64,000 nucleotides of DNA. Origin: an uncultured delta proteobacterium. Lineage in GTDB: Bacteria; Desulfobacterota; Binatia; Binatales; Binataceae. Of the stretch, positions 8,003 to 25,862 are shown piece by piece. Position numbers and translations under genes: made by a program. The notes beneath the pieces are model-generated. The model saw only the letters and a list, made by a program, of their open reading frames with translations. It searched no databases and was not told the origin of the DNA. Where the stretch lies: contig CAWILO010000022.1 in NCBI GenBank assembly GCA_963836955.1, positions 583,505 to 647,504 of the forward strand. Reading direction: 5' to 3'. Positions within the stretch are counted from its first letter, which is position 1. Each line of letters starts with the position of its first letter.

Positions 8003-8023
8003 CTCTCGCGTGCTTAGGTCCCC

Positions 8024-8459
8024 TCAGGACTTTCGCCGGAAGACCAGGACCGAGCACGGCGCGGCGCGCACCAGCTTCTCGGCCACGCTTCCGATCATTA
8101 GATGCTCGATGCCGGTCCGTCCGTGGGTTGCGTGCAAGATCAGGTCGATCCGCTGGTCCTTCGCATATTCGACCAGTTTCGGAACCGGCGGTCCGACCAT
8201 CACTTGAGTGAAGACCTTGGTGGAATTTCCGCAATTGTCTTCCGTATGCGCACGAGTTCCTCTTCAGCCTCCTCCACCATCAGGGTCTCACGCGCCTGCT
8301 CGGGCATTTTGTCCAGTAACGCGAAATGAGGCGCGACTACGTGCACGATATGCAGCTCGCCGTCGAGGTCCTTCGCCAGCTCCATCGCACCGCGTAACGC
8401 TTCCATCGAGTATTCCGAAAAGTCGATCGGAGCGAGGATTTTCTTTAGATTTTGAATCA
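8024..8459 (-). pseudogene. Universal stress protein, frameshifted near 8240
   Basis: MIQNLKKILAPIDFS... continues after a 1-nt shift as ..HATHGRTGIEHLMIGSVAEKLVRAAPCSVLV. Confidence 0.85.
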
Positions 8460-8509
8460 TAAGAAGCCTCCGAGAATTCTGCAATTGGCAGGCGTCTAGA
8501 CCGTGGCCG

Positions 8510-8938
8510 TTACGGCGAGCGAATATACCTTCGGAGATCGTCCGCTTCGGACTGGACCTCTTCGAGACGCTGCTTCACGACATCGCCGATGCTGACGATG
8601 CCATGAAGTGCTCCATTCTGAATGACTGGCAGATGGCGTATGCGCTGCAGTGTCATCACCTCCATGAGATCGACGAGTTCGTCCTCGGACGAGCAAGTTT
8701 TAACGTCACGGGTCATCAATTGGTCGGCCGGCAGTGCCGGCACCGCCTCGGCATGCTCCGACATTCCGCGGATGATGTCGCGCTCGGAGATGATCCCTAT
8801 GATCTGACCTCGCCCGTTGACTACCGGTACGGCGCCGATCCGATTTTGCGCGAGCACCTTGACGACCGCCGTGACGGTCTGTTGCGGTGCTACAGAATGA
8901 CCTTTTTGCTTCAGGACCGACGAAACCTTGGTTCCCAT
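8510..8938 (-). CDS. CBS-domain pair protein
   Basis: IGAVPVV..GIISERDII; MTLQRIRHLPV..GIVSIGDVVK. Confidence 0.92.
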   Translation of the reverse strand: MGTKVSSVLKQKGHSVAPQQTVTAVVKVLAQNRIGAVPVVNGRGQIIGIISERDIIRGMSEHAEAVPALPADQLMTRDVKTCSSEDELVDLMEVMTLQRIRHLPVIQNGALHGIVSIGDVVKQRLEEVQSEADDLRRYIRSP

Positions 8939-9118
8939 GTTTCGACCTCCCGGCTTTAAATATCAGGGCCATACGGGCCGCAGTCGTCTTGGCTCCTCGA
9001 TTACAAAAGCTCCGTGGCTCCGGAAAAACTGTCCTCCACACAGCCGAGCGCATATTGGGAAATTGGAGGGGCAAGCAGGTGCTGCAGATGAATCGTGAGT
9101 TGATAGAGCGATCATCGA

Positions 9119-9334
9119 CTAAGTTTTGGATTGAACGGTTGGGAAAGGCGCCTTGATCGCCTTCCTAAGCGACTTTGCTGCCGGGTTGCACCCGAGAGAG
9201 CCGGCCTTCGCTCTACTTAGTAGTTCTTCGATCTCTGATTCCTTACGTTTGTGATCCGAGCGCAGATGCGTCTGGATCGAACGCTCACTTGCGGTTCGCA
9301 GGCCACACAGAGGGCATTGGTTCGAATCATTCAT
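9119..9334 (-). CDS. Small C2H2 zinc-finger protein
   Basis: CPLC-x12-H-x4-H spacing (CPLCGLRTASERSIQTHLRSDH). Confidence 0.6.
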   Translation of the reverse strand: MNDSNQCPLCGLRTASERSIQTHLRSDHKRKESEIEELLSRAKAGSLGCNPAAKSLRKAIKAPFPTVQSKT

Positions 9335-9405
9335 GCTACACCATGCGAATGACTCTTTTGTTTGCGAGCGCAGGACCTCGGTCTCACCCTTTATTCAGCG
9401 TCATG

Positions 9406-9819
9406 TTACTTCGCAATATCCTTGGTTGCTCGTGCACGCGGGCTAGCCTCACGTTGCCGACGCTCCTTTCTCTGCCTGTGGGTGCTCACCGCACCCAGCT
9501 GAGGGACCACCAGTTCAAGTTCCTCGGGACGCTCCAGCAGAGAGGCCGGAATGAAATGGGGTTCATCAATACCTTTGATATTAGGATCGCGATCTTCCAG
9601 ATATCTCATCGCAGTAGTCGTAACCCCGGCCCTGACTGCCGGGTAGTACTGGCGTGCTCTGCTAACCCGGCATTCGAACCTTACGACTATGCGTGGTCTG
9701 CCATTGATTGCTTGCATGGTCTCAACGATTCCGGGCCACCATCGCCCCCTGGCGAGGTGCACGATCCAAATCCAAACCGGCGACCCAGGTTTTAGTCTAT
9801 ATGCTTCGGTAATGCGCAT
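9406..9819 (-). CDS. Hypothetical protein, PWWP/Tudor-like barrel with basic tail (paralog 2)
   Basis: PGSPVWIW..GRWWPG..VRFECR..MRYLEDRDP; clear paralog of the 9934-10395 ORF. Confidence 0.7.
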   Translation of the reverse strand: MRITEAYRLKPGSPVWIWIVHLARGRWWPGIVETMQAINGRPRIVVRFECRVSRARQYYPAVRAGVTTTAMRYLEDRDPNIKGIDEPHFIPASLLERPEELELVVPQLGAVSTHRQRKERRQREASPRARATKDIAK

Positions 9820-9933
9820 TTAGCTTCGCTCTTGAGACGTGGCGCTCATAGAGTCCAAAAACGGACCTATGGAAGCGATTGAGACTCATTTCAACAGACT
9901 GGTTTCCGCCTTACTCCTTCGGCGCCGTTCACT

Positions 9934-10395
9934 TCACGTTTCAATCGCGACTTCAGTTGCATCCTGGGTTGGATTCGAGACTTTCAACTTTTTCCTCGAT
10001 CGAGACTTCTTGACGGAAGTTCGCAATGACACTCGCGGCTGATCAGCCGTGGTAATCGTGTGTAGATCCTGCACGTCGTTGAGTCCGGCCCCGCTTTCCT
10101 CGGGTTTGGCCAAAATCGCGCTCGGAACAAAATTCGGTCGATCGTCACCTTTCAGGTAGGGATCACGAAGTTCAAGATAACGCATTCGGGTGGTGCTGAT
10201 GCCAACGAAGGCTGGTCCGTCGATTCCGTTTTTTCCGGTCGAGCGACACTCGAAGCGGGCATTGATCATCGGAAAGGTTTCCAGAACGGTGATGGACAAC
10301 ACGGATCCGGGCCACCACCTGCCTTTGCCCACCCGAACGATCCAGACCCAGACAGGAGTATCTGGACCGAGTTCGCAGACCTGATGAACATCCAT
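9934..10395 (-). CDS. Hypothetical protein, PWWP/Tudor-like barrel with basic tail (paralog 1)
   Basis: PDTPVWVW..GRWWPG..ARFECR..MRYLELRDP; GGAGG RBS. Confidence 0.7.
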   Translation of the reverse strand: MDVHQVCELGPDTPVWVWIVRVGKGRWWPGSVLSITVLETFPMINARFECRSTGKNGIDGPAFVGISTTRMRYLELRDPYLKGDDRPNFVPSAILAKPEESGAGLNDVQDLHTITTADQPRVSLRTSVKKSRSRKKLKVSNPTQDATEVAIET

Positions 10396-10519
10396 TTTGC
10401 TATTTTCCCTCCGCCTCAGTTTCGTAGGTAGTGACCCTCAGTTCACAGCGAAATTTCGAAATACGATCGATGGGAAGCTTTGTCCTGATCGAGATCTGTT
10501 CGAGTCCACAGGTCATGAC

Positions 10520-12337
10520 CTAGGCCTTCACGGATGAAGAGCGTTCGGTTTCCCAGTTCTGTTCCAATCCGGCTCTGAGAGCTTCCCGCTGTACCTCAAG
10601 TTGGGGCGGATGTGTCTCACCAATACCTGCGAAAAATTGTTCCTGGAGATCCAATTCCGGTAGCCACTCGTCGGGCCTGATGGCCATCGCCAGCGCGAGC
10701 CTTTCGTTTGGCATGTCCAGGCCTGACAGATCCGAATCTGCCACACGCGGCATGAATCCGATGGGGGTCTCGTTCGCGGTAACCCGTCCTCGTGCTCGCT
10801 CGACTATCCACTTGAGCACGCGCATGTTTTCGCTGTATCCGGGCCAGAGAAAGGAACCGTCGCGATCCTTTCTGAACCAGTTCACCATGAAGATGCGGGG
10901 AGGGTGTCTGAGTTTCCCTCCGATCGCGAGCCAGTGGGCAAAGTAATCGCCCATGTTGTAGCCACAGAATGGCAGCATCGCCATCGGATCGCGCCGGATT
11001 ATGCCGACCTGTCCGTTGGCAGCAGCCGTCGTTTCAGAACCCATTGTCGCACCTAGATAGACACCGTGGGTCCAGTCAAATGATTCGAATACCAGCGGCA
11101 CGGTCGAAGCACGACGTCCGCCGAAAATGATCGCTGAGATACGCACGCCCTGCGGATCGTCGGCGCTGGGTGACAGAGCGGGATTGTTTCGCATCGGAGT
11201 GGTAAATCGACTGTTCGGATGCGCCGCCTTGTCGCCCGACCCTTTTCGCCACGGGCGCCCTTGCCAGTCGAGCATCCCATCAACTGGGTCTTGGTCCATG
11301 CCTTCCCACCAGACGTCGCCATCGGGTGTCATCGCAACATTGGTGAAGATCGTATCGCGCTTGACCATCTCCATGGCGTTGGGATTTGAGCTAACACTGG
11401 TGTCCGGAGCGACGCCGAAATAGCCGGCTTCTGGATTGACGGCCCAAAGCGTTCCGTCGGGCGCTACTCGCATCCAGGCAATGTCGTCGCCAACAGTGAA
11501 AACACGCCATCCGCCGAGGGACTTTGGCGGATGTAGCATTGCCAGGTTGGTCTTTCCGCACGCGCTCGGAAACGCCGCGGCAACGTAGGTAACCTCTCCC
11601 TGAGGACTTTCGACTCCAAGTATCAGCATGTGTTCGGCCAGCCAACCCTCTTTCCTGCCGAGATAGCTGGCTATCCTGAGGGCGAAACACTTCTTGCTAA
11701 GAAGCGCGTTGCCACCATATCCGCTTCCCACAGACCAGACTGTGTTGTCCTGAGGAAAGTGACATATGAGTCGCCGCTTAGGGTCGAGGTCGAGGGTGCA
11801 GTGTAACCCTCGACTGAAGTCTCCGGATTCGCCCAGCAGGTCAAGAGCTATGCGGCCCATCCGGGTCATGATTCTCATGTTCAGGACGACATAAAGGCTG
11901 TCGGTCAATTCGACTCCCACCTTCGCGAAAGGGGAGCCAACAGGTCCCAGGATGTAGGGAACCACATACATGGTCCGCCCACGCATCGAGCCTTTGAGCC
12001 ATGCGCCCAGCTTTCCGTAAGCCTCGTCAGGCGCCATCCAGTTATTAGTGGGGCCGGCCTCGTCTTTGCTAGGCGTACAAATGAAGGTGAGATCCTCGGC
12101 GCGTGCAACGTCATTGGGGTTCGATCGATGTAGATAGCAGCCTGGCCGCTTGTTTTGGTTGAGTGGAATCAGAGAACCAGTGGCGACAGCAAGTTCGGTC
12201 AGACGCTGCCTCTCCAGCTCGCTACCGTCGCACCAAACAATTCGCTCCGCCTTGGTAAACCAGGCCATCTCGGAAACCCAGTCGAAGAGTTCACGACTTC
12301 TGGTGGAGGACTTTGCGAGCTGACTGCGGTTGGTCAT
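10520..12337 (-). CDS. pckG: Phosphoenolpyruvate carboxykinase (GTP)
   Basis: GSGYGGNALL, WLAEHML, AFPSACGKTNLAM, VGDDIAW, AHPNSRF, RDPMAMLPFCGYNM, NWFRK. Confidence 0.96.
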   Translation of the reverse strand: MTNRSQLAKSSTRSRELFDWVSEMAWFTKAERIVWCDGSELERQRLTELAVATGSLIPLNQNKRPGCYLHRSNPNDVARAEDLTFICTPSKDEAGPTNNWMAPDEAYGKLGAWLKGSMRGRTMYVVPYILGPVGSPFAKVGVELTDSLYVVLNMRIMTRMGRIALDLLGESGDFSRGLHCTLDLDPKRRLICHFPQDNTVWSVGSGYGGNALLSKKCFALRIASYLGRKEGWLAEHMLILGVESPQGEVTYVAAAFPSACGKTNLAMLHPPKSLGGWRVFTVGDDIAWMRVAPDGTLWAVNPEAGYFGVAPDTSVSSNPNAMEMVKRDTIFTNVAMTPDGDVWWEGMDQDPVDGMLDWQGRPWRKGSGDKAAHPNSRFTTPMRNNPALSPSADDPQGVRISAIIFGGRRASTVPLVFESFDWTHGVYLGATMGSETTAAANGQVGIIRRDPMAMLPFCGYNMGDYFAHWLAIGGKLRHPPRIFMVNWFRKDRDGSFLWPGYSENMRVLKWIVERARGRVTANETPIGFMPRVADSDLSGLDMPNERLALAMAIRPDEWLPELDLQEQFFAGIGETHPPQLEVQREALRAGLEQNWETERSSSVKA

Positions 12338-12347
12338 GGTAGTTTAC

Positions 12348-13103
12348 TCAGCCCTCAGTTGCCGCCGAGATACCCAAATCTCGTTCGGCGTCAGACAGCG
12401 CTGCGAAGATTGAGTCGGCGGTGACGGCGGCCATTAAGGTTTGCAGCGTTTCAGGTCGTGAACACATCTGCGGGAGCTTTGCCAGCCAGGGAAGGTGCAG
12501 TTCGTGATATTTAAGGCCGAGTACGAAAAACAGATGAGTGGGCTTACCGTCGAGAGCGTCGAAATCGACACCGCCAAGCGATCGGCCGAAGACCATGAAC
12601 GGTTTGACTACGTGCTCGGGATAGCGATTGAGCGTATGCAGGAAGGCGAGTCCGTTACCGGTCGCGCTCGGCATGATATTCTCGCGCTCGATAAGAGCGC
12701 CAACGAACCAGTTCTTGTCCCTCACGAGATTCAGTCGGCTAGCCAGATTCGCGAGTTCCTCGATGACGCCGGTTTTCGTGTTGGCCTCAAGCTCAGGAAT
12801 TATGTGGCTGGTCTGAAAGCAGCTCGCGAGATTCAGCATTCGACGAGCTGCAGGCGCGCCTCTTGAAATGTCGATGCTCCTTGGCGTGACTCCCAGCATT
12901 TGATCGTCGAGCCAAGCGTCGAGCATCGCCTTACGGAACCGCCATTGGTTACCGATTCTGACTCCGGGTAACTCACCCTCGGATACCAATTTGAGCACCG
13001 TTCGTTCGTTGACGTTCAGGTAAGATGCAAGTTGCCGGACGGTCATCAGCCTATCGTTGGAATCAGAGGCATTTTCCGTTGTTTTACGGATAATGTTTGA
13101 CAT
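12348..13103 (-). CDS. Excisionase-type HTH fused to PTS EIIA (Ntr/Fru-type) domain
   Basis: MTVRQLASYLNVNERTV..GNQWRF; ERENIMPSATGNGLAFLH; GVDFDALDGKPTHLFF. Confidence 0.88.
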   Translation of the reverse strand: MSNIIRKTTENASDSNDRLMTVRQLASYLNVNERTVLKLVSEGELPGVRIGNQWRFRKAMLDAWLDDQMLGVTPRSIDISRGAPAARRMLNLASCFQTSHIIPELEANTKTGVIEELANLASRLNLVRDKNWFVGALIERENIMPSATGNGLAFLHTLNRYPEHVVKPFMVFGRSLGGVDFDALDGKPTHLFFVLGLKYHELHLPWLAKLPQMCSRPETLQTLMAAVTADSIFAALSDAERDLGISAATEG

Positions 13104-13206
13104 GGTCCTCAGAATACGTAAAAATGCGGAGAAATACAACCAATTACAGAGAAGCTCGTTACTTGGAAGAAACTCTCGTGCCCGTTTGTCCTGAGGTGAA
13201 GTAAAA

Positions 13207-13734
13207 GTGGGAGGCGATCGAAATGGCGCTGCCGTCCTGTGCTGGACGAAGGCTTACCGGATTGGTGACTATCTGAGCAATGTGAACCGCTTCCGCGACT
13301 CAAGGCCCCCGGAATCGGCTGGCGTATATGTTGTATCCAAGCGTCCGTGGGAAGAAATGCCCAGCAAGTCCTCGGGAGTCGTCGTTTACGTAGGTCAGGC
13401 GAGATACCTCCGCAGCCGAATTGGAGCACTGCTGTGCGACTTACTGGGATTTACCGGCGACGAATACAGCGACGGAGAAGCCTATGAGCATGGTGGCGGA
13501 CACTTTCTGTGGCACTATTACTGTATCGCTCGCGCCGTTGAGCCTTCGAACCTTTACATCGGGTGGTGCTCACCGTGCATATGTCTCGACTGCGCGGAAG
13601 CCAAACTACGCGAGTTAATGGATATCCGGTGGAACTGGTACCCTACGCGGTCGTGTGAACATCACAAACCGGTTCTAGAATTATTCCACAATTGCGCCAC
13701 TTCTATTCCTCCGTCGGCTGGCTCAGGGCGGTAG
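13207..13734 (+). CDS. GIY-YIG-like nuclease-domain protein
   Basis: SAGVYVV...VVYVGQA..LRSRI matches the GIY-YIG pattern; Cys cluster near the C-terminus. Confidence 0.55.
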   Translation: MGGDRNGAAVLCWTKAYRIGDYLSNVNRFRDSRPPESAGVYVVSKRPWEEMPSKSSGVVVYVGQARYLRSRIGALLCDLLGFTGDEYSDGEAYEHGGGHFLWHYYCIARAVEPSNLYIGWCSPCICLDCAEAKLRELMDIRWNWYPTRSCEHHKPVLELFHNCATSIPPSAGSGR

Positions 13735-13818
13735 CAGTACCGCCAAGAACTGAGCGGTTTCTGGGATTCTCAACCATCTCAAGATCAACAAATGTCCGCG
13801 TGGCGGGGGAATGCGTTT

Positions 13819-14020
13819 GTGCAGTTGAACGTCAGAGAAGTGTCGAAACTGCTTAAGGTTTCGGAGAAGAGAGTCTACGACTGGATCAAGCGCGGAATCC
13901 TCCGGGCCGAACGGGTTAACGATCAGTACCGAATGCATCGCAGCGATTTGCTGGAACAGACATCCTCGCGACATTGCCGCGCAGATCTTTGAAGCTCCCT
14001 CGACAACCGGATTATCTGTC
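13819..14020 (+). pseudogene. Truncated excisionase-type HTH (N-terminus of a second HTH-EIIA-like gene)
   Basis: VQLNVREVSKLLKVSEKRVYDWIKRG..RVNDQYR; no downstream EIIA domain recognisable. Confidence 0.65.
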
Positions 14021-15079
14021 TGTCGGGCAAGCGTTCCGCGCAACTCGTGCAACCCGATGAGAAGGGACTGAAACGGGCGGTCACCCCTCACGGTGAATAC
14101 GGTCAGAAACCGCCATGATAGAGAGACCTACGACGCGCCGCGGGTTCGCAGTTCCGCGACTCCCGTCGATTGCATCGTCATTCAACACTCATTGAGGACT
14201 GCCGAGGATCAGCTCGCAAGGAGGTATAGCCGAGAGGTGTGGAAATAGGGAAAAGGCGATGTAGCCTTCCGGGTTGACGAGACCCAGCCGGAGAACCGGC
14301 AGGAAGGAGGACACCGCCATGGAGAGCATAAACCGAGCAGAGCGCCGCCGGTCAAGAAGAGAGTTAGCGAAGCGCCCACAGTGGGGAACCCTCGAGGAAT
14401 TTACTCGGTGCAGGATTCAGAGCTGGCTGCAGGATGTGCTGGAGGAGGAGGTCACCGAGTTGCTCGGCCGGGGCAAGTCGGAGCGGCGCGCGGTGGTGGA
14501 TGCGCCAGCAGGATACCGCAACGGGCACGGCAAGACGCGGCGATTGTCGATGATGGTCGGCACCATCGAAGTGAAGCGACCGCGAGTTCGAGGTTTGGAA
14601 CAGCGCTTCGAGAGCAGGCTACTGCCGCTGTTTGTGCGCCGGACCGAAGCGGTCAGCGAGCTTTTACCCCAGCTTTACCTTCACGGGCTCGCCCAAGGAG
14701 ATTTCGAGCTGGCGTTGCGCGGACTGCTCGGCGACGGTGCGCCGCTCTCGGCATCGTCGATCGAGCGGCTGCGGGCGAAGTGGCAACTGGAGTACGCGGC
14801 GTGGCGAAGCCGGCGGTTGGATAAGCTCGAAGTAGTGTACGTCTGGGCCGATGGTCTCTATGTGAAAGCGGGTCTTGAGGATAGCAAGGCCGCGCTGCTG
14901 GTGATCGTGGGAGCCTTACGGGACGGGCGCAAAGTGGTGCTGGCGATTGAAAGCGGACAGCGCGAATCGAAGGAATCGTGGGCGCGGGTGCTGCGCGATC
15001 TGTTCGCTCGCGGGCTGAGACCGTGGCGGGCCACGGTGGCCGATGGACACTTGGGGATCTGGTCGGCGCTGGGCGAGGT

Positions 15080-16560
15080 GGAGTTGTCAGGAATTTCGTG
15101 TTTGAGCCAGTGGTTGATGAGCGAAGCAGTCGTGTCAAGCGACTGCTAACTACCTGCTGAGCCGGAGCGGCGGTCGCAGTCAAGGGCGGCGTCAGCCGGC
15201 GCGCGCAGCGCGCGAACCCTTGACGGCGTGCTGACGCGGAGGCTATCCGGCGCTGTATCACAGAGCGCATTTTAGTCTGCCACCACGAAGCGGTCCTCGA
15301 ACTGGATCGCCAGCTGGGTCTTGGCAGCCTGCCACGAAATCGGCGGATTTTTCCAGCGCGCCTGAACCTTGCGCAGCACCAGCCAAATGAGTTTGGTTGC
15401 CGCCTCCTCGCTGGGAAAATGCCCGCGGATTCTTACCGCCTTGCGCACCTGCGCGTTGAGGCTCTCGATCGCGTTGGTAGTGTAGAGGATCTTTCTGACT
15501 TCGGGGGCGAAGGCGAAGAATGGAATCACCTGCTCCCAGTTGCGCCGCCAGCTCTGCGCGATCGCCGGATATTTCTGACCCCACGGCCCGCGGTCGAAAT
15601 CCTCCAGCCGCTCGCGCGCCATCGCGGCCGACTCGGCCCGGTAGACCGGTTTGAGCGCTGCTGCGACCGCCCGGTGTTCCTTCCACGAGGCGAACTGCAT
15701 CGAGTAACGGATCAGATGCACGATGCAGGTCTGGACCACGGTCTTGGGAAAGACCGAAGTTATCGCTTCGGGAAATCCTTTGAGTCCGTCGACCACCGCG
15801 ATCAGGATGTCCTGCAGGCCGCGGTTGCGCAGTTCGCTCATCACCCGCAGCCAGAACTTCGCCCCCTCGGTCTGTTCGATCCATATGCCGAGGATTTCCT
15901 TGTGGCCCGAGCAGCGAACCCCGATCGCCAGGTACACCGCCCGGTTGCTGACCAGACCTTCGTTGCGGATTTTTACCCGCAGCGCGTCGAAGAAGACGAT
16001 CGCGTAGGTCGAGTCCAGGCCGCGGCTCTGCCACGCCGCTACCTCCTCGAGCACCGCATCGGTTACCGCGCTGACCAGGTCCGGCGAGATCTCGGCCCCG
16101 TAGAGCTCGCCGATATGCTCGGCGATCTCGCGGGTGGTCATCCCGCGCGCGTACAGCGCGATGATCTTGTCGTCGAAGCCAGGGAACCGCCGCCGGTACT
16201 TGCCGATCAGCACCGGGTCGAAGCGCCCCTGACGATCGCGCGGGATCGCAAGCTCCAGCCGGCCGCTGTCGGTTAGAACGGTCTTGCTGCTGTAGCCGTT
16301 GCGGTGATTGCCGGCTTGTTCCTCCGCCTCCCCGCCCAGATGATGATCCATCTCGCCATTGAGCATCCTCTCCGCCAGCCGCTTCTTCAGTTCATCGACC
16401 AGGCCGCCGCTCTCGAACACCGTCGCCGGGTCGCGCCCCGCCAAAAGCTGATCCACCACCTCATCCGCGATTCCATTTTCTCTGCTCGCTGCCATACTTC
16501 TTCCTCCCGCCCTGTCCGGGCGTCATTGTATGGCTCGAACACAAAATTTCCGACACACTC
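15080..16560 (-). mobile_element. IS256-family element (different subtype), nested
   Basis: ~30-bp imperfect IRs (..TGTC.G.AATTT.GTGTT.GAGCCA); no TSD visible. Confidence 0.92.
15272..16495 (-). CDS. IS256-family (Mutator-like) transposase, intact
   Basis: RNGY, PRDR, FFDAL, VVDGLKGF, QTCIVHLIR, YTTNAIESLN. Confidence 0.95.
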   Translation of the reverse strand: MAASRENGIADEVVDQLLAGRDPATVFESGGLVDELKKRLAERMLNGEMDHHLGGEAEEQAGNHRNGYSSKTVLTDSGRLELAIPRDRQGRFDPVLIGKYRRRFPGFDDKIIALYARGMTTREIAEHIGELYGAEISPDLVSAVTDAVLEEVAAWQSRGLDSTYAIVFFDALRVKIRNEGLVSNRAVYLAIGVRCSGHKEILGIWIEQTEGAKFWLRVMSELRNRGLQDILIAVVDGLKGFPEAITSVFPKTVVQTCIVHLIRYSMQFASWKEHRAVAAALKPVYRAESAAMARERLEDFDRGPWGQKYPAIAQSWRRNWEQVIPFFAFAPEVRKILYTTNAIESLNAQVRKAVRIRGHFPSEEAATKLIWLVLRKVQARWKNPPISWQAAKTQLAIQFEDRFVVAD

Positions 16561-17240
16561 ACTACGCCGTAAGCCGAGCTGAATGCGAGCGGTTGCGCGA
16601 TCAGTTTGCCACCCGCTATCGGCAACTGTGCCCCAAGGCGGTCGAGACGCTGAGCCGCGACTGGGAGCGGATGGTGACCTTCTATCGCTTTCCGAAGGAT
16701 CATTGGATCCACCTGCGCACCACCAATCCGGTCGAATCGCCATTCTCAGCGGTGCGGCTAAGAACCGACGCCGCCAGGCGTTACAAGAAGGTCGCCAACG
16801 CCGAGGCCTTGATCTGGAAGATCCTGATGATTGCGGAGAAGAAATTCCGCCGCCTCAACTCGCCCGAACTACTCGCGGAAGTTTACGATGGACAACTATT
16901 CGAGGACGGAATGCCAGTAAATGAAACCACCCCGAAGCGCCGCGCCGCCTGATCTCGTTTACACACCTATTGCGGTGACCTCCTCGCAAGTACCAAACAA
17001 CTCTGTTTGTGTCGGCGGTACCCCCAAAAGCGTCTTCGCGCACGACACTCTCTACAGACTTAGCGAGACATGAGGTCGCAATCCGACTGTGGGGGAATTT
17101 GTGGGGACCCTCGGTCACATTTGATATCACTGTGTAGCTGCAGTCGTCCTTTTCAAAATACGGGAAAACCCTTCGCGCACAATGAGTACATGCTTATCCG
17201 GTGATACGGAGCAATACCGGTGAAAACCTGCCCTCAACGC

Positions 17241-17285
17241 CTGTTAACCGTCATGTCGCTGGTTCGAATCCGGCCCGGGGAGCCA
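17241..17285 (+). tRNA. 3' fragment of tRNA-Asn(GTT), att-site remnant rather than a complete tRNA
   Basis: CTGTTAA anticodon loop, GCTGG-TTCGAAT-CCGGC T-arm, CCGGGGAG-CCA end; no 5' acceptor strand or D-arm upstream. Confidence 0.85.
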
Positions 17286-17374
17286 CGTTCCGCTCATACG
17301 GCGGATCAACTCACGGAGAGCTCCGCGATTACTTCCAGCGCCAGCAGGCGCGGACCCCGCGTCGATGCCAGCGC

Positions 17375-17466
17375 AGCACAGTCAGGCTTGACGATGACTA
17401 TGGCATCCAACGCCGAGGGGAAGAGCCGGGGCAGCCAAAACGAGAGTCAGGCGATCGATGCCCTTG
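17375..17466 (-). pseudogene. Tiny fragment of an integrase-core (rve) transposase N-terminus
   Basis: Frameshifted IDRLTLV/WLPRLFPSALDAIVIVKP, resembling LWIWLYRLWPGCLEAMVLVKP of the 62.3-63.3 kb transposase. Confidence 0.45.
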
Positions 17467-17619
17467 TCGAGCGCACCACATGCGTGACAACCTCGGCCAC
17501 ACGAGCGCGCCGGCATAGTGCTCCGTTTACCGGCGCGCGCCGATTGAGAATAGAGTACGCCTCCCCACTGACCGAACGTCGGGCCAACGTGTGCAGCCGA
17601 GGCCGATTGGAGTGACGCG

Positions 17620-18647
17620 ATGCCAAAAAAACCTCGGTCCGAAAACCGCGCATTGATGACCGCAAACTCTGGGATGTCGTGTTTTCCGTATACGGCGCGC
17701 CGGCCGTGCTCCTTGCGCACAAACTTAAAGTCTTTCCGTTTCTCGCCGAAAAGCCGCGCTCGTTCGCCGAGATTTGCGAGCATCTCAACCTTGCCGTCCG
17801 ACCGACCGAAACGATTCTAGCCGCCAACGCGGCTCTGGGATTTGTAAAACTCAAGAGTGGCCGCTACACACCCACTCCGCTCTGCGAAGACTATTTGCTC
17901 GAAGGAAGTCCCACCTACTTTGGCAGCTACTTCGACCTGATCATCAACAACTATTCGGTTTGCTCAATCGAGAGCCTGGAGAAAGCAATCCGCTCAGACT
18001 CGCCGCAAGTTTACGGCGGCGTCGAACTCTTCAAATTCCACGAAGAGCAAGCCAACCTCGCAAGGTCGTTTACTCGCGCCATGCACAGTATCAGCATGGC
18101 GCCAGCGCTCGCGTGGCCGAGTGCAATTGATTTGTCCAAGTACAAGCGGATGCTCGATGTTGCTGGCGGCTCCGGCGCTCATAGTATCGGCGCAGTGACG
18201 CGATGGCCGAAGCTGAGCGCGACCGTCTTTGATATTGCACCCGTCTGCGAGGTTGCGAACGAAATCTGCCAACAGGCCGGCCTGCAGAATCGCATCAGCA
18301 CACACATCGGCGACATGTGGAATGATCCGTTTCCACCGGCAGATATCCACTTCTATTCCTACATCTACCACGACTGGCCGCCCGACAAATGCCGTCTCCT
18401 GAGCAGCAAGAGCTTCGAGAGTCTTAATCCGGGAGGAAGGTTGATTGTCCACGAAGTGCTTTACAACAAGGACAAGACCGGTCCGTTCGCGGCTGCCGCA
18501 TACACCATGATAATGCTCGGATGGACGACCGGAAGGCAGTACTCCGGACACGAGCTTTCGGAAATGCTGCGTGAGGCGGGTTTCAAAGATATCAGAGTCA
18601 AGCCGACGTTTGGCTACTTGAGCATCGTTACGGGCGTGAAGCGATAG
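17620..18647 (+). CDS. SAM-dependent O-methyltransferase (Methyltransf_2 type with dimerisation domain)
   Basis: MLDVAGGSG, GDMW, YIYHDW, LNPGGRL. The ATG at 17620 is out of frame by one A in an A7 run; the fallback start is 17679. Confidence 0.9.
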
Positions 18648-18739
18648 CGCCTCTGAACCGTCATGCTCACCCCTGGTGGGGCCGACCGAGGACGGAATAC
18701 GGCCCCCTCAAATCCTGCCTCAAGCTGACTAAATTCAGC

Positions 18740-18841
18740 CTAGTCGGCGAAGCACAGCGCACCGACTTCCTCCAGAACGCGCCGGAACTCAGGCGGAGGT
18801 GCGACGCACATGGTTCGATACGTATCCAGGAAGGGGAGCCA
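18740..18841 (-). repeat. att-like repeat 1 (encodes WLPFLDTYRTMCVAPPPEFRRVLEEVGALCFAD*)
   Basis: Direct repeat of 21860-21955 and 22741-22841; ends in GGGGAGCCA(C) like the tRNA fragment. Confidence 0.9.
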
Positions 18842-18875
18842 CACTAATCGAGCGCATCGCATTCGAGGCATCTGT

Positions 18876-20311
18876 TCAGGCGTGCACCCTCGGCCGCCGC
18901 TCAATCCACGGCTGCGCCTGCTCTAGCTGTCTCGCTACGCGAATCAGCAGATCTTCGCGGCCCATCGCTGCGACGAGCTGAACCCCCACGGGAAGTCCTT
19001 CAGGAGTCCAGTGAAGAGGCAACGAGATTGCGGGTTGACCCGTGACGTTGAAGGGCGAAGTGAAAAACAGATGCTGCGCGATCTTCGGCCATAGTTTCGA
19101 CGGTTTGTCTTGCGGTGGTGTCAGATCTGCGAGCATAGCGGGCGGCTCCGAATCCGTCGGCGTCAGCAGTAGGTCGAATCCCATCGTCCACCACTGCGCA
19201 ACTCGAACCGCCCAGAAGTTCTGCCACTCCATCGCCCTCATGTAATCTTCCGCCGACACGGCCGGCTGGTCTGGCCGGCTTAAAGCCCACAGGTACGGCT
19301 CCACATCTTCTTGCGTGACAGTCCGGTTCAACAAGTAGCCCAGTAGCTGAATGGACGCGCGCATTCCGGGCAGTCCAAGTGGTCGCAGCCGCGGTCCCTG
19401 TTCGGGGTCAAACAGAGCTTCTGGAGAGGATTCTTCAACTCGGTATCCCAATGACTCCAGCAGCTTGGCGGTTGCGGCCACCGCGCTCACACATTGTGAA
19501 TGGACTTCCCCAAACGGGGTTCTCGATAGCATTCCAATTCTGAGTTCCCCGGGGTCTTCGCCAAGTTCCTCGGTGTGCCTTCGCGCTGGCAGTTGAATCA
19601 GATAAAGGTCGCCAGGCTCGGATCCTTGAACAGCATCAAGCACTGCGGCGACGTCTCGGACCGTGTGGCTGACCACAAATTCGACTATTGAACGTGAGGT
19701 AGAGTGCCAAGATACTCGGCCGCGCGACGGTTTTAGTCCGACCAATCCGCACATCCTGCGGGGAGCCGGATAGAGCCCCCTTGGTCATTGGCATGCGCGA
19801 CTGGCACCATACCGGCGGCCACTGCCGCGCAAGAGCCGCCAGAAGAGCCACTGGTCGATCGCGCCAGGTCCCACGGATTTCGGGTTGGACCGAAGGCCAG
19901 CGATTGCGTCGTGCATTGCGCGCCAAACTCCGGGGTGTTGGTCTTGCCGAGGGTAATAAACCCGGCGCTGCGAAACCTCGCCCCCAGGATGGTATCTGAA
20001 GGCGACCGATAGCCAGCGTCCCGTAGGGCCCGATTGCCCATATAGTAGGGCTGCCCCTTCTGCATCGCGCCGATATCTTTCAGCAGGAATGGCACGCCCT
20101 GAAATGGTCCGTCGGGTAGGTCGCGCGAGACCGCGGCAGCCCGCGCATCTTCGAAGAGCGGTGTGATCACAGCATTGATGGCGGGGTTTACTCGTTCGAT
20201 TCGAGCGATTGCGGCATCAACCAGCTCGAGGGGGGTCAGCTCCCGTCGGCGCACCAGTTCAGCCTGTCCGGTTGCGTCCATCTTCGACAATTCACCGAGA
20301 TCGAGGGCCAT
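18876..20311 (-). pseudogene. Amidase (amidase-signature family), frameshifted near 19755
   Basis: [34 protein letters not shown] / [22 protein letters not shown]. Confidence 0.9.
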
Positions 20312-20574
20312 TGCTGTTTCTCCCCGGTCACTGTTTGACCGTTAGATCACAGATCTGCTTTCCGGGCACCTTACTCACGGTGACCTTGGTCAGTCGAGAC
20401 TCGTCTATGACCGTGAATGTGGTATTATGGGAGTACGAGCAGATCGGAAGCTTTCGGAACGCCTGCTAACCTTTCCCACCAATTCAAAGCACTAACGGAG
20501 TGGCGAAGGGGAAATCCCTTTCGCACTCTCCCCGATCGCACAGCAGCGACGTGGGTTACTTTTGCTTCGGCGAC

Positions 20575-21832
20575 TGGAGTGAACCCCATCGATTGGACAG
20601 TCCTCAGGCGGAAGATTGGACCAGGATGTGATTGTGTTGTTCCTCGAACTGCACCGGCGAAAGATAACCGAGTGCCGAGTGCAGTCTGCGAGTGTTGTAT
20701 ACCTCGTCAATGAAGCGCGGAAGTCTCGCGATCACGTCGGCATGAGTTCGATAGTCACTGAGATAGACCTCCTCACATTTGATCGTCTTCATGAAGCTCT
20801 CGGCTTTGCCGTTGTCGTAGGGATTACCGCGGCGACTCATCGAACCGATCAGGCCATGATCGGCAAGTACCCGGCGATAGGGTTCGGCAGCGTACTGCAC
20901 TCCGCGATCGGAGTGGTGAATGCAATTGCGCGGTGGCTGTCGGGTTTCGATCGCGGCGCGTAGCGCCGCCAAAGCAAGCCGCGTATCGATCTGCCGACCG
21001 AGCGCATAGCCAATCACGCGGCGCGACCAGGCGTCCAGAATCACTGCCAGGTAGACGAAGCCGGCCGCGATACGGATATACGTGATGTCGCTGACCCACA
21101 GCTGATTGGGACCGGTCGGGCGAAGGCCACGGACAAGGTTGGGAAAGATCGGACCATCGTGGTCGCTGTCCGTGGTGCGTACGAACTTGCGCAACGGTCG
21201 CACCTGGAGGCCGCTTTCGCGCATCAGTCGCGCAACTGCCTTGTGATTGACTACCATTCCCTCGGCGTGAAGTTGGTGGTGATACGCCGGTAGCCGTCGC
21301 GTGGGAACTCGGCACACAGCGCCTCAATGCGGTCGCGCAGAACCTTTTTCTCCGCCGCATCGCGGCGGCCGCGGTAATAGTAAGTCGAGCGCGCCAGCTT
21401 CATGATTCGGCATCCCCACGCAATGGAGACTGTTTCGGGCCGCTCACAATGGAGTAGCTCCCTTCGTTGGGCTGGCGTCCCAACTGCGCCCCTTTTTTGA
21501 GCAGATCGACTTCCATCGTCAGCTGGCCGACCTTGCGCTCGAGTTCCGCGATCTTGCGCTCGTACTCGGCGATGTGAACTGCCTCGGCCAGCTCGTCGGT
21601 AAACTCGCCGGCCTCGTACTTGCGGATCCAAAGCCGAATCAGATTGCGCGACAGACTATGCCGGCGCGCCAGCTCATGCAGGCCCGCCCGGCCGTCGAGA
21701 AACTCTTTGGCGATTTGACGCTTGAACTCCGAACCGAAACTCCGATGCCGAGCCATGCCCCATCCTCCGATAAGCCCATCGCCCGGTCCAATTCGTTCCT
21801 GCCTGTCTGTCCAGCTTTCGGGGTTCACTCCA
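20575..21832 (-). mobile_element. IS3-family element (orfA 21756-21400; orfB 21403-20604 with an extra frameshift near 21285)
   Basis: IRs TGGAGTGAACCCC..TGGACAG; TG..CA ends; 3-bp TSD GAC; A6G slippery site at 21492-21498; DDE motifs [20 protein letters not shown]. Confidence 0.93.
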
Positions 21833-21859
21833 GACTTCTCACCGAAGTGGATCAACATT

Positions 21860-21955
21860 TCAACCGGCGTTGACGCGGACTTCCTCCAGGACGCGCAGGA
21901 ACTCTGGCGGCGGCGCGAAGCACATGGTTCGATACGTATCCAGGAAGGGGAGCCA
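21860..21955 (-). repeat. att-like repeat 2 (encodes WLPFLDTYRTMCFAPPPEFLRVLEEVRVNAG*)
   Basis: Same repeat family, with the GGGGAGCCAC core. Confidence 0.9.
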
Positions 21956-21984
21956 CCAAGACTCCAGCACATGACGCATCTGTG

Positions 21985-22642
21985 TGCCATCATGGACGCG
22001 GCGAACGCGCCGAAGAAGCGCGGGAGCTACAAGAAGGCGTCCGGCTAGGGGCCGCGATGGGCCGGTTTGATGGGCATCAGAAACTATTTGATCGAAGGCG
22101 TTTCCGGCGCCGGCAAAACGGCGGTCTGCACAGAATTGCAGCGGCGCGGCTACCAGGCCATTCATGGTGACTGGGAATTGGTGTATCGAGGCGATCCGGA
22201 AACGGGTCTACCGACGGCTCCGGAAACGGGTACACCGACGGCTACCTGGATGTCCGAGCACCAGATTTGGGATGTAGAGAAAGTACAAGCCTTCGTCGCC
22301 AACCAGGAGGAGGCGGCCACCTTTTTCTGTGGTAGCTCCAGGAATTTGGCCAAATTCATCGACTTATTTGACGGCGTGTTTGTCCTGGAGGTCGACCTGG
22401 ACACCATGAACCGGCGGATTGATGAGCGAGTGGCACTGGACCCAACTGACTTCGGCGGAAAACCAGAGGAACGCGAACTCATTGCGCGATTGTATGCAAC
22501 GAAAGAAGATGTCCCGAAGGGTGGTGTTGTGATCGATGCCACTGCGCCGATTGAACGCGTCGTGGATGAGATTTTGGAAAAGTGCAGCTAGATCACGGAC
22601 AAGGGCGGAACGGCCCACCAAAATTCAAACTGAGACACTACC
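21985..22642 (+). mobile_element. IS1-like remnant: transposase tail, passenger gene and right end
   Basis: IMDAANAPKKRGSYKK* tail; end motif TTCAAACTGAGACACTACC at 22624-22642, recognised from memory as an IS1-like terminus. Confidence 0.55.
22067..22591 (+). CDS. P-loop nucleoside/nucleotide kinase-like protein (AAA family)
   Basis: YLIEGVSGAGKT Walker A; IDATAPIERVVDEIL. Confidence 0.85.
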   Translation: MMGIRNYLIEGVSGAGKTAVCTELQRRGYQAIHGDWELVYRGDPETGLPTAPETGTPTATWMSEHQIWDVEKVQAFVANQEEAATFFCGSSRNLAKFIDLFDGVFVLEVDLDTMNRRIDERVALDPTDFGGKPEERELIARLYATKEDVPKGGVVIDATAPIERVVDEILEKCS

Positions 22643-22740
22643 CAACGGCCCGTGTGAGGAAATCGAGCTCATTGGTGCCGCCTTCTTGCCTGCTGATATA
22701 GATCGATCTGATCTCGTACAGACCAACTGGCGATGCAGGT

Positions 22741-22841
22741 CTAGTCGGTGAGAAAGAACTCCTGAATTTCTTCTAGGACGCCCCGTAACTCTGGCTGCGG
22801 CGCGAGGCACATGGTTCGATACGTACCAGGAAGGGGAGCCA
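22741..22841 (-). repeat. att-like repeat 3 (1-nt deletion; WLPFL-TYRTMCLAPQPELRGVLEEIQEFFLTD*)
   Basis: Same repeat family, with the GGGGAGCCAC core. Confidence 0.88.
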
Positions 22842-23074
22842 CCTCTCACTCGCTGACCCTCGAAATCGAGCCGATGAGAGCTTTTGCGCTCAATTGTAAA
22901 GATTTCGCTAAAATCTGCATGATCCAGCTAGACGTACTGTACTGTGTCATGTAATGTCGCGCGAAAGTTGACGAGAGCGACGGCGTCTGAGCTACGCGCG
23001 AAATACGGTCATTACGGGTCGCCCTGACTGAAAGAGGCTGTATCTCGCTGATGGCTTCTGGGGATTGAGTTTCG

Positions 23075-25678
23075 ATGAGAATTCGGGAACGGCTATTCGT
23101 TTTCGGCCTTCTCGCCACCGTTTTGTTGAGCTGCACCGCCGGTATTTCTCGGGCGAGTGCATGCTCTTCCCTGCCGCCCGCATCGTCGCCGCAATTCCTT
23201 GAGCATCTCACCGCGTTCCTAAACGGGCTCTGCTACCAAAAGGAAAATTGGCAGCACGACGCGCATGTCAGGACCAGCGACGGCGTGCATCCTTTCGTCA
23301 GGGTCTGGTACTCACCCGGCCTTTTCGACTGGATGACGGTGAAGAATCGCAATGGTCCGGTGCCCAATGGCGCGATAGTCGTCAAGGAAATGTACATCAG
23401 CCTGACCGCGCCGCTCACCGAATGGACGGTGATGGTCAAGGACTCGGACCTGTCGTGGGACGGCTGGTACTGGGCTGGTAAATCCGAGTCCCAAAAATCC
23501 GAACGAGCCTCCCAAGAATCCCGAAGGTGCATGCGCCGAGCCCCAAGCCTTGTTCAACGGAGCGGGACTGTATTGTCTCAACTGCCACGCGTCGGCGATC
23601 GCGAATTCGGGCACCTATTCGAGCACTGCGTATCTCGCATCTACGCCCAGTTCGGGGCTCGGCTCGTTGTACGACGCGATCAATGAGATGGCGCCGTTCC
23701 AGATCGAGGACACCAGCGAAAGCGAATTGGAGGCACGACAGGCGCCGGAGTTCATCGATCGAATTTCCAGCTCGGTCTTCGCCAATCTCAGGCCTCTTGC
23801 CGATGTGAAAGTGCCCTGCATGGTCTCCGAGGCGATGGATCACGTGGTGACGGCGAGCCCCGCTCATGGAGGACCGCAGGAGTTCGTCACCTCCGATCAA
23901 TGCAGTGGCTGTCACGATGCGACCGGGACGCTGGCCGGGCTCACTCCGAACATGATTTTTAAGACAAACGATGGGACGCCGGTGAATCTCTCGCAGAATG
24001 GCGAGTGGCGATACTCGATGATGGGGTTGGCGGGCCGCGATCCGGTTTTCTTCGCGCAGCTCGACACCGAGTCAACGTTGCACAAACATCTCGTCGGTAA
24101 GCCCGACGGCGCGGCGTTCGTCCAGGACTTGTGTCTTCGATGCCACGGCGTGATGGGCCAACGGCAATACCATATTGATCATCCAGGGCCGGACAAGCTG
24201 TTCACGCGCGAGATGCTTCAGGACCGGAAATCCAAGTATGGCGCGCTGGCTCGCGACGGCGTTTCATGCGACGCCTGCCACCATGTGGCGCAAATGGAGA
24301 AGTTGGACACGTTCCTGCCGAACATCGGCACCGTCCCGCCCGCGTTCCGCATCGGCACCGGAATGATGTCGGAAGTGAGATACGGGCCATAAATCTGGTC
24401 GGGCGGACCCACCAGGAACTGGCCGGTGTAAAATTGAGGCATGAAGAAGGTTTGGTCCGAAATATGTGTCACACGATTGAGTTGCCGGTGTCCGACCGCC
24501 ACGGCCGGCAGGTGCTCGATGAGCACGGGAAACCCAAAACCGAATTTGAACAAACGACCTCTTTCGAATGGTTCAACAGCAGGTTTTTCAGGCCGCCGGC
24601 CCAGATAGTGAGCTGCCAGAATTGTCATATGCCTGTGAAGTACCGGGGCGCCGATTTGGCATTCAAGATCGCCAATATCGAGGACAACACCTTTCCGCGA
24701 GTCCCTGAAACCGGACCCTCGACGCGCTTGCCCGACGACGTGCTGACCATGCAGGAACGCACTTCCTTCGGACGTCACCAGTTGAACGGCATCAATGTGT
24801 TTGTGCTCGAGATGTTCGACCAGTTTCGTAAAGACCTCGGCCTCTTCAAAGTCGACCCCAATCTTCCGTTGCCCATAAGAGACCAAATATCGAGTCAAAA
24901 GACAGCGGTCGCCGAAGGCGTATTGCAGGCGCAAACGGCGACGGCCAACGTCGCCGTCACTTCGGTAACGACCGACGCGACCACGCTCACCGCAAACGTT
25001 AACGTCGAGAACCTGGCCGGTCACAAATTCCCCACCGGGGTGAGCTTCCGCCGCGCATTCATTAATTTTCAGGTGCTGGATGCCAGCGGCAAGGTGCTCT
25101 GGGCCTCGGGCAACACCAACGTCGAGGGTGTCATCGTCGATAATTCGGGCACTCAGCTGGAGACCGAGTTCTTCAGCCCCAGGCAGCCCACGCAGCAAAA
25201 GTTCCAGCCGCATTTCTGGACCAACTCGCCGATTACCAGCGACAAACAGGTTCAGATCTACGAGGAGCTTGTGGTCGATCCCCAGGGACTTTTGACAACG
25301 AGCTTTCTGAGCTTTGATCACGAGGTGAAGCATAACCGGCTCGAACCTTCAGGAAGGACCGTGGGCGGGCCGTTTGATGAATTCATTTTACCGGTCGGCA
25401 CCGGTGACGACCCTTCGTATCAGGGCACGTGCGGCTGCAGCATGCTCACGTACGCTATACCACTGGCGCAAATCCCGGGTGTGCCCACTGCCGTGCAGGC
25501 GACTATCTATTATCAGAGCATCCCGCCTTACTATCTGCGTCAAAGATCGGAGCAGGGTAACGGTCCCGATACGGCGCGACTGATCAAGTTCGCCAGTGAG
25601 TTGAACGTCGCCAACTATCCGGAAATCGCCAGCTGGAAGTTGTCGATCGCAAGCTCAGGAGTAGTCGGCATCAAATGA
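23075..25678 (+). pseudogene. Secreted cytochrome P460-like plus multiheme cytochrome c, disrupted by a frameshift (~23475) and an internal inversion (24282-24466)
   Basis: Signal peptide; GAIVVKEMY..VMVKD..GWYW; CLNCH, CSGCH, CLRCH, CDACH, CQNCH; NLAGHKFPTG. Confidence 0.85.
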
Positions 25679-25862
25679 GCCACCGACCCAGCCGCAGCTA
25701 GCTGCCCTTCACCAACGCATTTTGCCGGGACTTCGTCTCGGTCTGGACCGCGAGCGCATTCGACTGAGGCCGCTCTAGTCGCCTCTCGAATTATTTTTCG
25801 GCAAACCTCGCCTCCCGTCGTATCGACCCGATCAAATAATCTGCTACTTTATTTGCGGAACC

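Follow-up and report, generated by a model that had tools for sequence, protein, structure and literature searches.

Positions 17241-22841 of a 64,000-nt stretch of contig CAWILO010000022.1 (hereafter the window; the genome assembly comprises 5.64 Mb) hold an array in which three direct repeats of about 100 bp follow a fragment of a tRNA-Asn gene and delimit three short units carrying a methyltransferase, an amidase and a kinase-like gene. The question raised by this locus is where repeats that encode a peptide but no start of a gene come from, how the units between them came to be lined up and whether they can still be moved. We consider it probable that the repeats are scars of the 3' ends of large serine recombinase (LSR) genes, left by serial insertions at the tRNA gene, and that the array is now an immobile relic. 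The three repeats are:

18740-18841, minus strand: R1, attP-derived P half-site with a detached 33-codon recombinase C-terminal tail; core GGGGAGCCAC at 18833-18842
21860-21955, minus strand: R2, second recombinase-tail scar; core at 21947-21956
22741-22841, minus strand: R3, the oldest scar, in which a 1-nt deletion breaks the WLP frame; core at 22833-22842

Repeats and the encoded peptide

R1, R2 and R3 are direct repeats, each terminating in GGGGAGCCAC, and the tRNA-Asn fragment at 17241-17285 shares the same ending. The repeat search gave one direct family of 79 nt, at 18764-18842 (taken as reference), 21878-21956 (92%) and 22765-22843 (72%), together with a separate 22-nt family which R1 and R2 have in common with the tRNA-like piece at 17265-17286. 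No further copies were present in the 5.64 Mb of the genome, in which a pattern search returned two forward matches versus none for the reversed control pattern. The original prediction for this DNA, made from the sequence alone, had described three repeats of about 100 bp that end in a shared core and lose all similarity right after it; the repeat and genome-wide searches confirm the former, and the alignment, where similarity among the repeats vanishes rightward of the core, confirms the latter. An Rfam scan of 16900-23300 with E values up to 1 gave no match.

On the minus strand, with the core as the starting point, R1 encodes WLPFLDTYRTMCVAPPPEFRRVLEEVGALCFAD followed by a stop codon (33 residues) and R2 encodes WLPFLDTYRTMCFAPPPEFLRVLEEVRVNAG followed by a stop codon (31 residues, with a tail of the …RVNAG type), while in R3 one lost base puts WLP out of frame with TYRTMCLAPQPELRGVLEEIQEFFLTD and its stop codon. 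The predicted peptide of 31-33 residues starting with WLP is accordingly present in R1 and R2 and frameshifted in R3. The differences between the copies had also been described as mostly synonymous. In the window this bias is weak, with four synonymous and three non-synonymous codon differences between R1 and R2, and six and eleven, respectively, between R1 and R3, and for this reason our case for selection on the peptide is based on copies in other genomes, where a constraint was indeed detected (see below).

Recombinase family with two alternative tails

A protein search for longer carriers of the tail gave seven matches in which conservation starts exactly at WLP, the N-termini are unrelated and no Pfam families are found. 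P0005-P0007 and similar sequences were rejected as genuine tail-bearing proteins and are spurious open reading frames (ORFs) with unrelated N-termini. P0005 starts with an LSR coiled-coil region and, as judged by eye, translates part of a recombinase 3' region in the +1 frame; its N-terminal part, used as a query, found two recombinases in the class, one ending in …SEIWLPGARW and the other in …FENWLLG, the latter entering a tRNA-like antisense.

With the back-translated WLPFLDTYRTMC pattern 43 stretches were located, mostly in Alphaproteobacteria and also in Verrucomicrobia, 'delta proteobacteria', Dehalococcoidia, Vicinamibacterales and Actinomycetota. In approximately 40 of these 43 loci of other taxa, stop codons lie 1-5 codons upstream of WLP or the sequence ahead of it is unrelated. 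Two loci (L086 and L095) retain …NEI or …SEI codons, and the remaining ones are conserved only from WLP onwards. On one contig, L090, which ends close by, a recombinase C-terminus continues in frame into the tail (RQPFDLLADT…AKNEIWLPFLDTYRTMC…).

When the C-terminus of the recombinase served as query, 347 homologues were obtained, and tail classes were counted in the best 120 of them. Tails that are tRNA antisense, such as WLPGPDSNQRPTG, were found in 92 of these 120, the types including WLPGPDSNQRP[ST]G and WLGDLDSNQD; another 26 end otherwise, several of them stopping right after WL, and two bear the repeat tail. The repeat-encoded tail (…SEIWLPFLDTYRTMC…) is therefore known in frame in two proteins, P0030 (…DLSVIWLPFVDTYRTMC…) and P0084 (…KSEIWLPFLDTYRTMC…), and in contig L090. 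Both proteins have Pfam Recombinase and/or Zn_ribbon_recom domains. The enzyme class that the original prediction had named is right. The terminus of P0108, WLPGPDSNQRHDG, is the exact antisense of the tRNA-Asn of the genus to which the window belongs. A recombinase with Resolvase, Recombinase and Zn-ribbon domains that owns the repeat was found in other genomes, not in the window, and a scan of one genome per species yielded at least 558 relatives of this family.

These in-frame fusions confirm the proposal that the repeats are detached 3' ends of LSR genes whose attP lies inside the coding sequence, and we regard the origin of the repeats as established. The same can be said for the exchange of tails in the family, in which integration replaces a tail of about 30 residues by a tRNA-encoded one, as had been predicted and as the 92 tRNA-antisense tails and the two repeat tails bear out. 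Each repeat would represent the attR-type junction of one LSR family whose gene spans its own attachment site. The crossover would fall in TGG-CT(C/G), part of W-L-P and some 33 codons ahead of the stop. These bases, reverse-complemented, give the end of the target tRNA (…[G/C]AGCCA), which is tRNA-Asn or, in other lineages, tRNA-Gln. After integration the recombinase body would adjoin the tRNA and take its last ~10 residues from the tRNA antisense (WLPGPDSNQR… up to a stop), and the displaced tail (FLDTYRTMC.AP.P.FR..LE..R… up to its stop) would move with the left half-site of attP to the far end of the element, where it would remain as a scar of about 100 bp.

The same observations bear on another possible origin, in which no serine recombinase is involved and the repeats come either from a chromosomal target gene, as its displaced 3' ends, or from the action of the tyrosine integrase of the integrative and conjugative element (ICE) that lies beside the array. 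Elements integrating in the 3' ends of genes often bring a replacement end, and the integrase ORF of this ICE likewise enters the tRNA antisense, for 10 codons (…MAPRAGFEPAT and a stop). We nevertheless give this explanation hardly any credence, as it is contradicted by the in-frame fusions and by the complete elements described below: LSRs are the sole real genes found with the tail, the ICE uses an exact 45-nt tRNA repeat whereas the repeats of the array share with the tRNA just 9-10 nt and a spaced 8-mer, and the 43 stretches are scattered over several phyla, with the ICE beside the repeats in none of the genomes checked.

Geometry of the attachment sites

How the repeat relates to the tRNA is best seen from the distances to the core. 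When the T of TGG is taken as the start of the count, the first base of TCGAACCA falls at +24 in the repeats, compared with +19 in both tRNA-Asn and tRNA-Gln, the intervening stretch being alike, and the 8-mer TGGTTCGA is separated from the core by 5 nt more in the repeat than it is in the tRNA. According to the portion of Rutherford et al. 2013 (PMC3783163) used here, the distance of the distal (zinc-ribbon, ZD) motif of serine integrases from the centre of the site is 5 bp shorter in attB than in attP. This 5-bp shift of the distal motif was found in our sites, as judged on the left half-sites, and we take the att geometry as established. MAFFT aligns the repeat with the tRNA without the 5-nt gap; we prefer the gapped reading because of the exact 8-mer and the invariant synonymous sites. 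Namely, the synonymous positions of CCC, TAT and CGA are invariant in 27 unique tails, and loci L184 and L188 keep TATCGAACCATG despite differing residues ahead of the motif, from which we conclude that this part of the repeat is constrained by DNA recognition.

Codon 2 of the tail is CTC in all tRNA-Asn-linked copies seen (L100, L104, L184, L188 and the genus of the window) and CTG in all five tRNA-Gln-linked copies (L085, L094, L105, L116 and L144), so that its third base agrees with the base preceding AGCCA in the target tRNA. Since attP and attB are identical only in TGGCT(C/G) and in a few bases ahead of it, the crossover probably lies within this short motif. The half-site on the side of the recombinase is well conserved (…CGGCGAAAAGTGAGATT, directly followed by TGG), and past the crossover the copies are no longer alike and continue as host or older DNA. 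Short LSR-like codons to the right of some distal cores (in G012, G032 and at R3) were considered as remains of an uninterrupted attP and set aside, tentatively, in favour of a similarity of B' and P' near the crossover.

tRNA linkage and complete elements

A tRNA gene on the opposite strand lies at the 3' end of the recombinase in 67 out of 80 family loci (by ARAGORN 46 Gln, 19 Asn and 2 Cys), and in four of the 80 the repeat is found inside the 10-kb flank. When four LSR-bearing genomes were searched whole, all four proved to contain exactly one repeat, on the strand of the recombinase, upstream of it and at the predicted far end. The complete elements in these genomes measure 3.7, 5.3, about 13 and about 28 kb, and each carries its own recombinase. 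A fifth genome has four repeats and the recombinase only as a broken fragment. The order of the element matches the model: flank, core, tail, cargo, recombinase, core, tRNA.

In both of the small complete elements a gene of the XRE-type helix-turn-helix class follows the stop codon of the tail on the same strand (L184 6424-6825 and L188 8001-8390). On the circle this gene would sit directly downstream of the recombinase gene.

Selection on the tail and a possible switch

Among 41 full-length tails, 28 stop at codon 34, and the 27 unique ones were used; the 13 of other lengths were dropped. We analyzed codons 13-33, which the search pattern had left unfixed, and as the tails are related the figures are descriptive. 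Entropy by codon position was 0.78, 0.61 and 1.34, and the pooled ratio of non-synonymous to synonymous variation (pN/pS) was 0.44 in frame versus 1.24 and 1.63 in the shifted frames. These values support the view that across the wider family the tail is under purifying selection at the level of the peptide, as read from the pattern of substitutions.

In 22 of the 27 unique tails (loci L076-L118) the end is hydrophobic-Ala-Ala, an ending which we take to be like that of ssrA-type ClpXP degrons and which the window copies do not have. AlphaFold2 gave for P0084, from an 80-row alignment, a mean predicted local distance difference test score (pLDDT) of 74.6, with residues 264-277 of the tail below 50 and a helix at 280-292 of approximately 57-70. 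Prediction of a complex between the recombinase C-terminal part and the 30-aa tail returned run scores of 0.08, 0.50 and 0.01 and no verdict.

It is possible, if doubtful, that the tail swap acts as a built-in switch, with free and integrated forms differing in stability or direction, or that units without a recombinase are true cassettes mobilised in trans. In the case of a switch the circular element would encode a recombinase with the conserved tail of ~30 residues, predicted as a flexible stretch and a short helix, and the integrated element would encode one whose last ~10 residues come from the tRNA. As the forms would not be equally stable, or would differ in whether they favour integration or excision, the element could sense its own state with no additional factor. 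If on the other hand the units are mobilised in trans, they would amount to an integron-like system that relies on a serine recombinase and is situated at a tRNA gene.

Array in the window and in related genomes

The units which the repeats divide contain the following features:

17323-17460, minus strand: transposase-gene fragment, reading ...LTVLRWHRRGVRACWRWK... with stop codons, 36 nt right of the first core
17679-18647, plus strand: cargo of unit 1, O-methyltransferase (Pfam Methyltransf_2, E = 3e-35)
18876-20311, minus strand: cargo of unit 2, amidase, as two overlapping ORFs with a frameshift near 19733-19754
20572-21833, minus strand: insertion sequence (IS) of the IS3 family within unit 2, with 27-nt inverted repeats at 20574-20600 and 21807-21833 (Pfam rve, HTH_Tnp_1)
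22067-22591, plus strand: cargo of unit 3, the oldest unit, P-loop kinase-like protein (Pfam AAA_18)

Pfam thus agrees with the prediction of three units with unrelated cargo. As in cis-mobilisable or accreted att-flanked elements, there are three tandem units with cargo only and without recombination or transfer genes.

Within the genus, represented by 47 genomes and queried with the 33-aa repeat peptide, the repeat is held by 13 genomes with 21 copies in total; in G019 the query found nothing significant. Weak peptide matches within long ORFs of G038 and G054 (loci L018 and L023) were dismissed as chance, the ORFs being glycosyltransferases. In 11 of the 12 relatives bearing repeats these are situated 0.7-12 kb downstream of tRNA-Asn, and the association with this tRNA, proposed as a check of the prediction, therefore recurs elsewhere.

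The kinase unit, which here begins at the R2 core, begins at the tRNA core in G003, G021, G022, G033 and G070, with 94-98% collinearity. It comes after an islet with a tRNA fragment in G011, G021 and G064, and different units precede it in G067. The amidase unit matches that of G009 from core to core, without the IS3-family element, and there it ends in an R2-type tail (…RVNAG) and has differing neighbours on both sides. The distal copy of R3 type is at once the most widespread and the most damaged, with a stop codon in G070 and indels in G022, G032, G067 and the window, and the proximal R1 is intact and found only in this genome. Unit order, sharing and decay across the relatives together indicate that new DNA entered at the tRNA-proximal junction and that the oldest unit stands last, and we treat this polarity of the array as established.

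The islets between tRNA-Asn and the kinase unit (L048 of G011, L046 of G021 and L224 of G064) are 0.8-1 kb long and end not in the repeat, but in 29-47-nt copies of the tRNA 3' end; one of them carries a PemK/MazF-like ORF. At these three loci a different type of integrase uses the same tRNA.

Scars, polarity and linkage to the tRNA fit serial integration at the tRNA-proximal junction. Three successive events would have brought first the kinase unit, then the amidase unit and finally the methyltransferase unit, and the recombinase gene of each unit would have disappeared afterwards. Serial integration, loss of the recombinases and the present immobility of the array are what we infer. A different history could produce the same order, if the array accreted elsewhere, an element excised by way of an older, distant scar, and the whole was imported en bloc with one recombinase that was later lost. 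A single loss would then suffice, the stretch from R1 through the amidase unit to R2 is collinear in two species, and att-flanked elements without an integration module that are moved together with a neighbour are discussed, in the text drawn on here, for the ssrA islands of Dehalococcoides (PMC3146451). We regard this import as quite improbable, because five other species have the kinase unit and R3 next to tRNA-Asn with no further unit and because other units precede it elsewhere (the cassettes of G067 and the tRNA-fragment islets of G011, G021 and G064), which a stepwise local insertion explains better.

Several observations weigh against serial insertion with subsequent loss. No member of the cognate recombinase family was found in any of the 47 genus genomes, where the best matches to the family recombinase have 26-31% identity and belong to N-terminal domains of other LSR families, and tblastn of the window units and of the fetched loci of the 12 relatives detected no remnant of a recombinase gene. 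As random decay would be expected to leave fragments, these missing remnants speak against serial loss. A search of the window's own genome with the C-terminal part of the family (the first 118 aa of P0005) likewise gave no recombinase remnant. The tRNA-proximal junction must moreover serve again as attB, since according to the published rules, in the part of the source consulted, an LSR does not integrate into attL (PMC3783163). That a usable target, in effect a fresh attB, might be restored by the loss of the recombinase gene and of the distal P' motif is our conjecture. To this should be added that the crossover was placed solely by sequence identity and symmetry, that the right, host-side half-site showed no more than an A-rich stretch and some short matches resembling GAGAT, that in G009 the four-copy array and tRNA-Asn are on separate contigs, and that in G064 the kinase unit is present without R3.

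The missing remnants could also mean that the units never had a recombinase and are non-autonomous cassettes, a cargo gene plus one repeat, moved in trans by a family recombinase from a transient plasmid, a phage or a neighbouring element, comparable to integron cassettes or ccr-less SCC-like elements (SCC, staphylococcal cassette chromosome). Consistent with this, approximately 15 different units in 13 genomes lack any recombinase remnant, the units are small (0.9-3.1 kb), mostly single-gene and bounded exactly by cores, and the neighbours of the amidase unit differ on both sides between two species. In other phyla, too, gaps between repeat and tRNA are too short for a recombinase gene (L094 1.9 kb, L116 1.7 kb and L100 1.35 kb). 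We hold such cassettes to be unlikely, however, considering that the recombinase which should move them is missing from the 47 genus genomes, that the left end of the units has no conserved second half-site, that older copies decay by frameshift, stop codon and indels, and that the four complete elements seen have their own recombinase; the published LSR rules, in the portion used, also allow for neither attP x attL nor attP x attR (PMC3783163).

The original prediction had gone further and suggested an integron-like array mobilisable in trans, which is not supported as stated, with no cognate recombinase in 47 genomes and the oldest copy decaying. It had also proposed a search for core-to-core circle junctions. 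Eight joints were listed in the contigs of four public soil-metagenome runs, whose cover is patchy and low, and none of them was core-to-core; such contigs are too thin to reveal rare circles. As no cognate LSR is present in any of the 47 genus genomes, we see in the array most likely an inert scar of accretion and not a working gene-capture system.

tRNA-Asn fragment and the 46-kb ICE

At the head of the array stand two further features:

1-17285, strand not assigned: distal 17 kb of the ICE, the rest of the ~46-kb element lying between the intact tRNA-Asn and the array
17241-17285, plus strand: 3' fragment of tRNA-Asn(GTT), the attR of the ICE, an exact 45-nt copy from the anticodon loop to CCA

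The last 9 nt of the fragment together with the following base form the first GGGGAGCCAC core (17277-17286). ARAGORN called no whole tRNA in the window and none at 17241-17285; it placed the single intact tRNA-Asn(GTT) of the genome at C22:554575-554650, on the same contig, 46 kb upstream and outside the window. A tyrosine integrase, a TrwC relaxase and a TrwB-type coupling protein adjoin this intact gene, and the 3' half of the tRNA stands as an exact direct repeat of 45 nt at both ends of the ICE, which spans C22:554575-600789. As tRNA, integrase, conjugation genes and far direct repeat are all present, a tRNA-targeting tyrosine-integrase ICE accounts for the tRNA fragment (and for the fragment only), which is its attR. 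The ICE, which we consider established, is inserted between the intact tRNA-Asn and the pre-existing array and separates the two; it would have entered the same tRNA later than the units did, displacing the array by 46 kb and leaving the 45-nt tRNA copy that heads it. The prediction had placed the array at a tRNA-Asn 3' end. The exact 45-nt fragment is there, yet it belongs to the ICE and is not the array's own anchor.

The extension of the ICE integrase ORF into the tRNA antisense is in a frame that differs from that of the serine-recombinase tails, and the TrwC relaxase of the ICE is present as two ORFs. Transposase genes of the IS256 family (Mutator) are nested at 14274-16952. The inner copy (15272-16495, minus strand) is intact with 407 aa and splits the other copy into an N-part at 14274-15149 and a C-part at 16530-16952. 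Contigs of the public runs break near 16983.

Comparison with known systems

The closest precedent are the ssrA islands of Dehalococcoides with their recombinase DsiB (McMurdie et al. 2011, PMC3146451; the comparison refers to the part of the paper used). There the LSR gene at the left edge of the island overlaps the attachment site, which is the 3' end of a gene for a small stable RNA, and the islands are lined up in tandem downstream of this RNA gene, each closed by a direct repeat; in some of them the integration module is missing. In the view of the authors the enzyme may attain its full function only in the circular form, or when it stands downstream of a neighbouring element from which it obtains the 3' fragment of its gene. 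In contrast to our family, DsiB targets transfer-messenger RNA (its T-loop) and not tRNA-Asn or tRNA-Gln, it represents a separate, CcrB-like lineage with a partner, DsiA, and its overlapping C-terminus is divergent in length and sequence (PMC3146451), whereas here the swapped tail is conserved as a peptide across phyla. With the integrases of A118/LI, Bxb1 and phiC31 the family has in common the Resolvase, Recombinase and Zn ribbon domains, short att sites and the 5-bp motif shift; these phages, as described in the text at hand, have attP outside the integrase gene and targets that are protein-coding or intergenic (PMC3783163). A 2014 database paper, in the portion seen, has serine integrases as not known to use tRNA genes (PMC4383910). 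In the literature searched there is no account of this LSR family or of a conserved swapped tail, although one may exist beyond the literature covered.

Integrons resemble the window in having an array of single-gene units with the newest next to a fixed site, but here the orientation of the cargo is mixed and no common promoter was identified. An IntI tyrosine recombinase or attI is lacking in 17286-23000, and the nearby tyrosine recombinase is that of the ICE, 46 kb away; no inverted repeat is listed inside the three copies that could correspond to attC, single-strand folding not having been run. For Mx8 IntP/IntX (Tojo et al. 1996) and SSV-type integrases it is reported that attP lies in the gene, that the target is a tRNA and that integration alters the C-terminus of the integrase, which is similar to the present case; they are said to be tyrosine recombinases, with other chemistry and another att architecture. 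Tandem accretion with short target-end repeats, in part without recombinases, is known from SCCmec and ccr-less SCC-like elements at the 3' end of rlmH (orfX) and from the cis-mobilisable elements (CIMEs) of Streptococcus ICEs, where the repeats of 15-30 bp, unlike ours, encode no detached recombinase tail. The available part of PMC4383910 cites the Mx8 and SSV integrases as cases in which the gene spans attP, and CIMEs and SCC are mentioned in that of PMC3146451.

The array of the window is in itself ordinary, the product of accretion at a much-used tRNA hot spot and most likely dead, and the main interest lies in the recombinase family which it exposes. This LSR family is large, common in soil and water bacteria and integrates at the 3' end of tRNA-Asn or tRNA-Gln. 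Because the recombinase gene spans attP, the enzyme has two C-termini, one in the free and one in the integrated state, which makes it testable how serine integrases set their direction or lifetime. Recombinases aimed at near-universal tRNA ends are also possible natural landing-pad tools. For annotation, many 'hypothetical proteins' ending in WLPFLDTYRTMC are probably such scars, and ends of the WLPGPDSNQR type read-through into tRNA antisense.

Cargo units and neighbouring sequence

Homologues of the O-methyltransferase with 80-83% nucleotide identity were found in two other species of the genus (G001 and G068), in both of which, the only genomes whose context was compared, they are distant from any tRNA. 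The amidase copy of G009 is intact with 471 aa (Pfam Amidase, E = 2e-81). The IS3-family element is polymorphic: it is missing from the G009 unit, and one contig of the public run X3 joins 20571 to 21833.

The transposase fragment at 17323-17460, which presumably resembles N-termini of the IS481/IS3 type, occupies the spot expected for the recombinase that unit 1 would have lost, 36 nt from the first core. About 130 nt of it recur five times elsewhere in the genome, on contigs C5, C6, C22 and C26 (twice on the last), and it is also present in G007 and G018 with 87-89% identity.

In the kinase-like gene a 24-nt tandem duplication at 22195-22242 gives PETGLPTA-PETGTPTA. Finally, the 3 kb at 22844-25860, between R3 and conserved genes for a lipoprotein and a sigma-54 regulator, have no counterpart in the relatives and contain a P460-like ORF and cytochrome-c-like ORFs, so that the hot spot is variable past the last scar as well.

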